Source: Escherichia coli (GTDB lineage Bacteria > Pseudomonadota > Gammaproteobacteria > Enterobacterales > Enterobacteriaceae). Taken from it: DNA of 64,000 bases. The stretch lies in assembly GCF_003334255.1 (NCBI RefSeq), contig NZ_QOWU01000002.1, one strand, 5' to 3'. Positions 6,427 through 10,195 of the stretch are shown here, one piece after another (the stretch's first letter is position 1; every line of letters begins with the position of its first letter). Both the position numbers and the translations under genes were made by a program. The notes below the pieces were generated by a model that saw only the letters and a list, made by a program, of their open reading frames with translations, did not search any database and was not told where the DNA came from.

Positions 6427-7746
6427 TTAGTGAGCGCTGGAGGTCACCTGACGACCTGCCGCGCGATCCCAGATAATGGCCAGAACCACCATCACCACTG
6501 TTGGCATTAACCACGCCAGACCTTGTTCGGCCAGCGGTAAACGCTGCGCCCAGGACGGTAAGATATCGCTGAATGCAGATGCTTTGATCCCGTCGAGAAT
6601 ACCAAAAAGCAGGCTGATAAACATCGGCGGAGCAATCACGCGGGACGAATTATGCCACCATGAGCGTGTAAAACTTAATACAACCAGTGCGATACACGGC
6701 GGATAAATAGCGGTCAGCACCGGTACGGAGATCTGGATCAGCTGGCTTAAGCCGAGGTTAGAAACCACCATCGAGAAGCCGCCGAGGATAAACACCAGCG
6801 TACGATAAGAGAGCGGTACGTACTGGGCAAAGAATTCTGCACAAGCACAGGTCAGGCCAACTGCCGTTACCAGGCAGGCGATGAAGATTAACGCCGCCAG
6901 CAGGAAGCTACCGCCGCCGCCAAAGGTGTGCTGAACGTAAGCATGCAGAATAGCAGCGCCGTTTGCAGACTGATCGACCAGCGACGCGCTGTCTGACCCC
7001 AGACGGAACAGCGCCAGGTACAGCAGAGTCAGACCAACACCCGCCATCAGGCCAGCCCAGACGGTATAACGGGTCAGCAGACGCGCTTCGGTAACGCCAC
7101 GAGAACGCGCCGCGTTAACAATAACGATACCAAACACCATTGCGCCCAGCGTATCCATGGTCAGATAGCCGTTAACGAAGCCGTTAGAAAACGCAGCGTT
7201 TTGATAAGCCTCAGTCGCCGTGCTGATAGAACCCGCCGGCCAGACAATAGCGGCAACAGACAGGATGACCAGCGCGATAATTTTCAGCGGCGCAAGGAAG
7301 TTGCCCACGGTATCCAGCAGCTTGCCCGGATAGAGCGAAACCAGAATAACGATAGCGAAATAGACCAGGCTGTAGATAAACAGCGGCAGCGCGGAATCAC
7401 CCGTCAGCGGCGCAATCCCCACTTCAAAGGAAACGGTAGCTGTACGCGGCGTAGCGAAAAGCGGCCCCACCGCCAGGTAACAAACCGTTGCCAGCAGTAC
7501 GCCAGCGACTTTACCGATTGGCGTGCTGAGGCTGTCAACACCGCCGCCAACTTTTGCCAGCGCCACTACCGTTAATACCGGCAGGCCAACGGCAGTAATG
7601 AGGAAGCCGAATGCCGCAGTCCAGACGTGTTCGCCTGCCTGTAAGCCGACCATTGGAGGGAAAATAATGTTACCTGCGCCGACGAACAACGCAAATGTCA
7701 TAAAGCCCAGAGCGATGATATCGCGCGATCTTAATTGATGGGTCAT
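6427..7746 (-). CDS. brnQ: Branched-chain amino acid transport system II carrier (LIVCS family)
   Basis: 439-aa polytopic membrane [37 protein letters not shown]. Confidence 0.94.
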
Positions 7747-8093
7747 AAATCATACTGCCTGTGGATGTGGTGTTGTAACGTTAAATTTTTGTGCCAATCC
7801 CTGGGGATGATACAGCGGTATATTTAAACAATTTTAGCGGGAAATACTCCCAACCAGGCGCGGCGAAGAATAGTTTTTCGATTTACCGCGTTAATGCAGT
7901 CAGTATGACAGCACCTGAAGCGCAATTTAAACGCTTATAACGTTTTAAAGCAAGGAGGGATCTAAAAACCAGAGGTATATAGCGATAAGAAATCACCAAC
8001 CAGTATAAAACACTATTTCCGTGAAAAAGACATGGCTAATCATGCGAACAAAAAATCACCAACCGTTGTAAAATCTAACGCCCGTATTTTGAC

Positions 8094-8127
8094 TGCAAAG
8101 AAAATAAGCCAGCATCGACTGGCTTAT
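8094..8127 (-). terminator. Candidate rho-independent terminator of the phoBR operon
   Basis: Perfect 9-bp stem ATAAGCCAG/CTGGCTTAT with 6-nt loop, about 26 bp after the phoR stop, followed on the minus strand by TTTTCTTT. Confidence 0.55.
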
Positions 8128-8152
8128 GGCAATAAAAGATGACAAAGGCGGA

Positions 8153-9448
8153 TTAATCGCTGTTTTTGGCAATTAAACGTTCCGGGATAACAAAACTGAA
8201 ACGTGTTCCTTTTCCTACTGTACTCTCAATATTCAGGCGACTTTCGTGATGATTCACAGCATGTTTCACGATCGCTAACCCTAATCCGCTACCGCCGGTT
8301 TGCCGGGAACGCGCTTTATCAACGCGATAAAAACGCTCGGTCAGGCGCGGAATATGCTCCGGTGCAATGCCCGGTCCGTTATCTTCAACGCTAAATTCGG
8401 CACCGTGCGGCACTCGCTGCCAGCGTACGGTGATATGCGTGCCTTCCGGCGTATGATTCACGGCGTTATAGACCAGGTTCGAAATCGCACTGCGTAGCTG
8501 ATCTTCGTTGCCAGACACCTTGAGGCCGTTATCTATCTCAAAGGTAAATGTCTGTTTTTTCTGACTCAGAGTCTGAGCCTCGCGCTCAACAACGCGCAGC
8601 ATCATCGGCACATCAACCTTTTCATTGAGCAAATGCGTCGGTGCGGCTTCTATTTTCGACAGCGTCAGCAATTGCTTCACCAGTCCTTCCATCCGCTGGG
8701 TCTGCTCGCGCATGGTGTGCAACGCTTTTTCGCGTACCGCGCCTTCCAGCGGCTGCTCATTCATCATCTCCAGGTAACCCTGTAACACGGTCAATGGCGT
8801 ACGTAACTCATGGCTCACGTTGGCAAAAAAGTTACGCCGCGCCCCTTCCAGTTGATGCATTTGCGTGACATCACGCGCCACCATCAGCAACTGTTTGTGG
8901 GTATAAGGCATGACGCGAATTTCCAGATGCCACCCGGTGTTGAGCACCAGATTGAGCGGGCGAGAAAAATCACGCGTTTTCAGATATTGCGTAAACTCCG
9001 GGTAACGCAGTAGGTTAAGGATGTTCTGCCCGTTATCTTCCGGCCAGCGCAAACCAAGAATTTGTTGCGCCAGACCGTTACACCAGAAAATACCGCCCTC
9101 TTCCGTGGTCAGCACCACCGCGTCGGGCAGCGACTCCGCGCCGCTACGAAAGCGTTTAATCAGATTGCCCAGTTCACGGCGGCGTTTTTTATTTCGCAGC
9201 TGCATCTGGTGTAAGCCGTATAGTAGCGGTTCCCAGCTACCACGCCCCGGTGGCGGGGTCATACTGCGATCCACCCACAGCCACCATGAAAGGCGCAATA
9301 AATTCCAGAAATGCCAGATAAGCAGTCCTGTTACCGATGCCAGCAAAAACCAGGGCAGGTAACCAAAAAATGCACCCAGGATGAAAGCCGGGAGGCAGCA
9401 AAGTAGCAGCTCCAGCACCAGCCTTTTCCACGACAGCCGTTCCAGCAC
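8153..9448 (-). CDS. phoR: Phosphate regulon sensor histidine kinase
   Basis: 431-aa [21 protein letters not shown]; H-box SHELRTPL and HATPase region; directly downstream of phoB. Confidence 0.96.
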
Positions 9449-9505: not shown

Positions 9506-10195
9506 TTAAAAGCGGGTTGAAAAACGATATCCTGTACCGCGCACGGTCTGCACCATGCGGTCATGCCCGCCGGGCTCCAGTGCTTTACGCAGGCGACGAA
9601 TGTGGACATCGACCGTGCGGTCTTCCACATACACGTTAGTTCCCCAGACGTGGTTTAACAGCTGCTCGCGGCTGTACACGCGCTCAGGATGCGTCATAAA
9701 AAAGTGCAGCAGTTTAAATTCTGTCGGCCCCATCTCCAGCGGCTCTTCGCCCGCCATCACTCGGTGAGATGTCGGGTCGAGACTTAATCCCTGCATCTCA
9801 ATCACCTCTTCCACCGCCATTGGCGAAATACGGCGCATTACCGCTTTGATTCGCGCCACCAGCTCCTTCGGCGAAAACGGCTTGGTGATATAGTCATCCG
9901 CGCCGGTTTCAAGGCCGCGCACGCGATCTTCTTCTTCCCCTCTGGCGGTCAACATCACCACTGGAATATCCCGGGTCATCGACTCGCGCTTGAGGTGTTT
10001 GATGAACTGGATACCGGAGCCGCCAGGTAACATCCAGTCAAGGAGAATTAAATCCGGCCAGGGTTCATTCAGTTGATTCACAGCACTGTCATAATCTTCC
10101 GCTTCGACCGGCTGAAAGCCATTTTGTTCGAGCACGAAGCAGACCATTTCGCGAATTGGAGCTTCATCTTCTACGACCAGAATACGTCTCGCCAT
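9506..10195 (-). CDS. phoB: Phosphate regulon response regulator (OmpR family)
   Basis: 229-aa [30 protein letters not shown]; receiver domain plus winged-helix C-terminus. Confidence 0.96.

Follow-up and report, generated by a model that had tools for sequence, protein, structure and literature searches.

An intergenic spacer of Escherichia coli, lying between phoR and brnQ, carries the same 12-bp sequence twice in the same orientation, and the question raised by this locus is whether the two copies are paired binding sites for a regulator of brnQ. Such a role had been proposed in a preliminary description of this DNA, with Lrp named as the candidate. The window, that is the whole stretch of DNA that was analysed, is 64 kb long, and the genes and the terminator that frame the spacer are placed in it as follows.

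6427-7746, minus strand: brnQ coding sequence, with brnQ annotated at the equivalent MG1655 position
8097-8127, minus strand: phoBR intrinsic terminator, a 10-bp stem (8127-8104) followed by a T-rich tail
8153-9448, minus strand: phoR
9506-10195, minus strand: phoB

The spacer covers 406 bp (7747-8152), and 5425 of 5426 complete E. coli genomes contain it at 95-100% identity. No annotated features are present within 7747-8152 in these genomes, or between phoR and brnQ in MG1655, and an Rfam scan of 7500-8400 at E <= 10 returned a spurious tmRNA fragment only. Two further elements, both recognised from sequence, are needed to describe the position of the repeats.

7924-7953, minus strand: putative brnQ sigma-70 promoter, -35 element TTGCTT (7948-7953) and -10 element TAAATT (7924-7929), 18-bp spacer
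7747-7917, minus strand: putative brnQ 5' UTR with conserved hairpins and an invariant CA-rich element (7754-7775)

The putative promoter is nearly invariant across all genera compared and is situated in a conserved block of about 60 bp, which is consistent with its being the brnQ promoter. A consensus promoter scan with stricter criteria called no promoter site, and a literature search for the brnQ promoter or its transcription start found no paper. An invariant palindrome, AAACG-N7-CGTTT (7929-7945, minus strand), lies within the spacer of the putative promoter and looks like an operator; RNAalifold applied to the region upstream of the promoter returned only this palindrome, without covariation.

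The two direct repeats with an identical 12-bp core were borne out by a repeat search of the sequence. The core AAATCACCAACC is found at 7990-8001 and at 8053-8064, and the start-to-start distance is 63 bp, which is exactly six helical turns (6.0).

7987-8010, strand not assigned: copy B, promoter-proximal, exact core 7990-8001
8050-8073, strand not assigned: copy A, promoter-distal, exact core 8053-8064

The 24-mers around the cores, AAGAAATCACCAACCAGTATAAAA (7987-8010) and AAAAAATCACCAACCGTTGTAAAA (8050-8073), are identical at 20 of 24 positions, and the 22-mers named originally (7989-8010 and 8052-8073, 41 bp in between) at 18 of 22. The repeats are located 243-327 bp upstream of the brnQ ATG and just past the stem of the phoBR terminator (8104-8127), so that their distance to brnQ and their position beside the terminator were also given correctly. 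Relative to the putative transcription start near 7917 the core centres fall at about -79 and -142. By coordinate conversion the two cores would correspond to 419,263-419,274 and 419,326-419,337 of U00096.3. A third copy of AAATCACCAACC is not present in the 64-kb window even when one mismatch is allowed, no further match of either copy at about 20 nt or longer is found in any of the 5425 E. coli genomes, the 39 bp separating the 24-mers are not themselves repeated, and no inverted repeat was found at either copy.

How unusual such a repeat is depends on the scale at which it is judged. Inside the 406-bp spacer alone an exact 12-mer repeat is improbable (P = 0.007 in dinucleotide shuffles), but at least one close exact 12-mer direct repeat occurs in 44% of shuffled 64-kb windows. 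The actual window contains 12 of them, 7 in two clustered arrays and 5 isolated, and 80 related loci gave 38 close 12-mer repeats in 571 kb, or about 4.3 per 64 kb. For AAATCACCAACC itself the chance expectation is about 0.5 exact copies on the two strands of the MG1655 genome. One such repeat is expected at the level of the scan because the finding came from scanning 64 kb; what is striking within a single spacer is thus ordinary across the window. The other isolated pairs are located at 7284/7404 (inside brnQ), 12754/12835, 13296/13395 and 34789/34873. The clustered arrays at 47104-47284 and 49290-49460 have a period of about 100 bp and are probably REP-type elements.

The history of the repeat was followed in 80 Enterobacteriaceae brnQ loci, one per species, with Escherichia at one end of the range and Cedecea and Buttiauxella at the other. 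Between the terminator and the brnQ ATG the spacer can be aligned nearly gap-free in two dozen species, with zero gaps in the repeat region; both copies therefore lie at homologous positions that already existed, and no duplication has taken place. Identity between the two 24-mers decreases from 20/24 in the window to 17-19 in other Escherichia and 10-14 in the Citrobacter freundii group, and in other genera it is mostly 3-11, which is background. Identity of the 12-mers is already lost in E. albertii (GAATGGTGATTT vs GATTGATGATTT) and in another Escherichia locus, L003 (GTCTGGTGATTT vs GGTTGATTATTT). In a comparison of four Escherichia lineages, variable positions make up 21% of the cores (5 of 24), 11% of the spacer as a whole and about 7% of the promoter and UTR. 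Across 81 sequences the columns of core B are only 0.3-0.7 conserved. Copy A is partly conserved (ACG, TG and a T-run, its last 3 nt falling in a conserved block), its core only at TG, one T and the T-run, and the cores rank among the less conserved stretches of the spacer. In a shift-tolerant test for a second copy, applied to 69 loci, the second copy was significant at 63 bp in the window and in three further loci of Escherichia, significant at 59 bp in two Kluyvera loci, and borderline in three more (p about 0.02-0.05; spacings 62, 81 and 90 bp); it was not significant in the remaining 60 of 69. The Kluyvera loci (L016, L026) have an independent direct repeat at positions equivalent to about 8064-8054 and 8005-7995, namely GTCTGGTTGTT twice in K. 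georgiana and ACGTCTGnnTATTTTTT twice in K. sichuanensis. It is a mild excess over expectation and a mild argument that similarity is favoured at both places, with a 59-bp register that is out of helical phase with 63 bp.

Within E. coli, 4978 of 5425 genomes have the same 36-mer as the window at copy B and 3831 of 5425 at copy A, where one sampled variant is a C>T at 8065, immediately beside the core. Fixation of both cores in the species is nearly complete, which means little because E. coli diversity is too low. Two variants are more informative. In strain A39 (NZ_CP028737.1, locus L082), 1 of the 5425 genomes, exactly 63 bp are deleted (about 8002-8064), so that one repeat unit and the conserved block are gone; the junction lies within the repeat, and what remains on its two sides is copy A's distal flank and copy B's proximal flank. 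Short direct repeats are classical hotspots of spontaneous deletion in E. coli, through slipped-strand or illegitimate recombination, and the loss of exactly one repeat unit in A39 is the signature of deletion between short direct repeats. In contrast to such hotspots, this type of loss is seen in one genome only, as a by-product of the repeat and not as a function. The second variant is an A>G that affects corresponding positions of the two cores (7995 and 8058; L085), carried by 141 genomes including strain 042, in which the cores read AAATCGCCAACT and AAATCGCCAACC. G in the distal copy only is found in 5 genomes, and changes in the proximal copy alone in none. By a rough estimate the chance probability of this parallel change is a few in a thousand; it could reflect a context-dependent hotspot, copying between the copies or selection for identity, and it is the main evidence against simple neutrality.

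Taken as a functional unit, the repeat, real as it is, is one that we lean towards regarding as a lineage-specific coincidence rather than a conserved operator pair, because there was no duplication, the similarity is restricted to a lineage, the cores show no extra constraint, such repeats are common, no motif fits and a single locus is concerned. The 12-mers would have arisen by point substitutions in the Escherichia lineage and would be young and essentially neutral, their neutrality being what we infer from the comparison. They would simply sit in AT-rich control DNA in front of brnQ, with their centres some 80 and 140 bp ahead of the putative transcription start. Regulation of brnQ at this place would run via an Lrp-type site that provides, with its AT-rich part, the flank of the promoter-proximal copy, via a near-invariant 24-bp block between the copies, and via the promoter and a structured, GcvB-targeted leader. 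The consequences of the repeat may be genetic only: it would serve as a substrate for slipped-strand or illegitimate recombination, as in the 63-bp deletion, and it may permit templated copying of a mutation from one copy to the other.

The opposite reading, that these are genuine paired sites for one regulator, either an Lrp octamer on phased sites or another factor, has to be weighed first against what is known of Lrp. Lrp-controlled promoters with upstream Lrp sites include ilvIH, livJ/livK and pap. The brnQ gene is similar to them in being an amino acid transport gene with an AT-rich upstream region, in the reported in vitro binding of Lrp to its spacer and in the presence there of a conserved site that fits YAG-N9-CTR (8001-8015). 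It is unlike them in that its 12-mer is richer in G+C and off the Lrp consensus, and in that only one convincing Lrp-type site is present and no phased array of 30-33 bp is demonstrable. The in vitro binding was reported by Shimada et al. 2015, whose genomic-SELEX placed an Lrp peak at 418,534 in the spacer from phoR to brnQ (PMC5320599, Supplementary Table S1). For conversion, U00096.2-type coordinates were assumed and a 776-bp offset was subtracted from U00096.3 positions; the coordinates of that study do behave like U00096.2, as the trxB-lrp entry falls in the expected spacer. The peak would then correspond to about position 8027 of the window, between the repeats and about 281 bp upstream of the brnQ ATG, with a mapping precision of tens of bp to roughly 100 bp at which assignment to the cores is impossible. 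The consensus used here, YAGHAWATTWTDCTR, is a 15-bp SELEX consensus with an AT-rich centre and AG...CT flanks, and its best match in the spacer is the following.

8001-8015, minus strand: Lrp-type site TAGTGTTTTATACTG, 2 mismatches to YAGHAWATTWTDCTR

This candidate site covers the AT-rich flank of copy B and has one base in common with core B; on U00096.3 it would fall at about 419,312-419,326. Its score alone is not significant, since two or fewer mismatches are reached in 12% of shuffles. In most of the 69 loci the aligned position is among the best-scoring 0.1-4%, and the YRG-N9-CTR flanks are kept in most genera, often with a perfect ATTCT half-site. The 12-bp cores themselves do not match the Lrp consensus at four or fewer mismatches on either core, and the equivalent offset beside copy A has 7-8 mismatches by hand count. 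Involvement of Lrp in the brnQ region, though not via the 12-mer, is therefore plausible, with 8001-8015 as the putative exact site. The earlier suggestion of Lrp as the regulator thus holds for the region, through the genomic-SELEX peak in the spacer and the Lrp-type site, and fails for the 12-mer cores. A hexamer at 7976-7981 (minus strand) reads CATAAT or TATAAT, hence -10-like, in most genera and TATATA in E. coli; it could belong to a second promoter, the -35 region of which would overlap the Lrp-type site.

Other regulators gave no better candidate for the cores. Consensus scans for NtrC, Nac, IHF, CRP, TyrR, PhoB, ArgR, PurR, Fis and sigma-54 found nothing on them. The NtrC (GlnG) dyad TGCACC-N5-GGTGCA was rejected, with only a half-site-like string, TGGTGA, being present and no 17-mer on the repeats coming within 5 mismatches. 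An RpoN+NtrC genomic-SELEX peak at 418,832 (PMC8743547) maps near the brnQ start, about 300 bp from the repeats. Close to this mapped peak lies a sigma-54-like sequence, TGGCACAAAAATTTAA (7781-7796, minus strand), which differs from TGGCAC-N5-TTGCW at 2 positions and is not well conserved beyond Escherichia.

In its fullest form the pairing hypothesis holds that Escherichia, and Kluyvera in a different register, acquired the sites, and that these flank the conserved block so that the DNA ahead of the promoter is wrapped or looped. It can draw on the Lrp peak that maps between the copies, on the spacing of 6.0 helical turns, on the identical A>G in both cores of 141 genomes, on the independent Kluyvera repeat at the same two places and on the low probability of the repeat in the spacer alone. 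Against this, the cores are not kept even in E. albertii and fit none of the consensus motifs tried, the Kluyvera spacing of 59 bp is out of helical phase with 63 bp, an identical mutation in both sites would not restore binding by an unchanged protein, the resolution of SELEX is too coarse to put Lrp on the cores, and the window contains no additional copies. Genuine paired sites are thus rather unlikely. The initial proposal that the repeated core represents paired regulator sites is not upheld, as the cores are poorly conserved, unlike the Lrp consensus and paired only in Escherichia (and, in another register, in some Kluyvera). A narrower version, in which the copies are kept alike on purpose as a lineage-specific pair (in Escherichia and independently in Kluyvera), jointly bound by Lrp or another factor and preserved by concerted change that keeps their identity, seems distinctly improbable.

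Constraint in this part of the spacer is concentrated in the segment lying between the repeats.

8032-8055, minus strand: near-invariant 24-bp block TTTTTTGTTCGCATGATTAGCCAT, conservation 0.8-0.99 across 81 sequences

In a BLAST search of 5426 E. coli genomes the block occurs at one place per genome, and it has no covarying RNA structure, no Rfam match and no match to any consensus motif tried. It carries an ATG on each strand, and one could imagine an unannotated small gene or upstream ORF to which the repeats belong by accident. The brnQ-strand ATG (8041-8043) opens MISHVFFTEIVFYTGW followed by a stop codon inside copy B (ORF 7993-8043), and on the plus strand ATG 8032-8034 opens a frame beginning MANHANKKSPTVV that passes through copy A. 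The region is without indels, and in Citrobacter, Enterobacter, Kluyvera and Phytobacter the brnQ-strand frame runs through 32-38 hydrophobic codons before a stop, but it is truncated at differing places in many genera, all Escherichia included, and lies upstream of the putative promoter. There is no Shine-Dalgarno sequence at a usable distance, the plus-strand ATG is absent in some species and its frame varies from 8 to 60 or more codons, and the annotations of MG1655 and of the PGAP-annotated genomes that were consulted include neither ORF. Since the frames are not kept across genera, small ORFs were rejected for both strands, and a small gene as the reason for the repeats is very improbable. 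The upstream ORF begins MISH.FF in loci L004-L007, L015, L021 and others, and in Escherichia it is cut by a TGA in or beside core B (7993-7995 in the window).

Origin of the copies as remains of a 63-bp tandem duplication would explain why they are direct and close and why their AT-rich flanks match too (20/24), yet orthologous spacers in about 25 genera are equal in length and gap-free through the repeats with unrelated sequence at both positions, and the 39 bp between the 24-mers are unrepeated, so that this explanation was rejected for lack of extra length relative to orthologues and is given only the slightest credence.

The leader of brnQ deserves separate attention, since brnQ has been listed among the targets of the GcvB R1 region (PMC9299463). 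Most of the 170-nt leader is conserved across genera, and two hairpins in it (7839-7915, minus strand) are 84-85% paired, with compensatory changes; no Rfam family exists for this leader.

7886-7890 with 7859-7863, minus strand: leader stem CGYGG/CCRCG, 85% paired, enclosing the conserved loop UAAAUCGAAAAACUAUUCUUCG
7848-7851 with 7839-7842, minus strand: leader stem GGGA/UCCC, 84% paired

Just upstream of the brnQ start codon the CA-rich sequence CAACACCACATCCACAGGCAGT (7754-7775, minus strand) is invariant and is likely to be the pairing site for GcvB R1. With brnQ being a GcvB target and the cores C/A-rich on the plus strand, the 12-mers might likewise be seen as GcvB R1 pairing sites on an unannotated plus-strand transcript with a sponge or target role; the brnQ-strand reading of copy A, ACGGTTGGTGAT, may be compared with GcvB R1 itself (ACGGTTGTGAT). 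The predicted R1 duplexes have energies of -14.6 and -17.0 kcal/mol, and at least as good a value is reached by 37% and 18%, respectively, of 30-mers drawn at random from the window, a consensus promoter scan found no promoter-like site for the plus strand, and the cores are not conserved; the sponge or target was rejected on these unexceptional duplex energies and is barely conceivable. A REP/BIME-type element was dismissed as well, with one detectable match per genome for each copy, no palindrome and no Rfam match: like REP/BIME, ERIC and MITEs the brnQ repeats are intergenic and lie beside a terminator, but unlike them they number two copies only, both in the brnQ spacer, and the arrays near 47.1 and 49.3 kb look quite different.

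A functional pair would be a modest gain, namely a further upstream element in the regulation of a secondary branched-chain amino acid permease. The control region of brnQ has already been reported to bind Lrp in vitro, and the finding of the repeat is an ordinary one. Its value is mainly negative, as comparison of species puts the constrained elements beside the repeat and not in it. The by-products may outweigh the repeat itself, namely the near-invariant 24-bp block, the conserved structured leader of brnQ and a natural strain with a 63-bp deletion.
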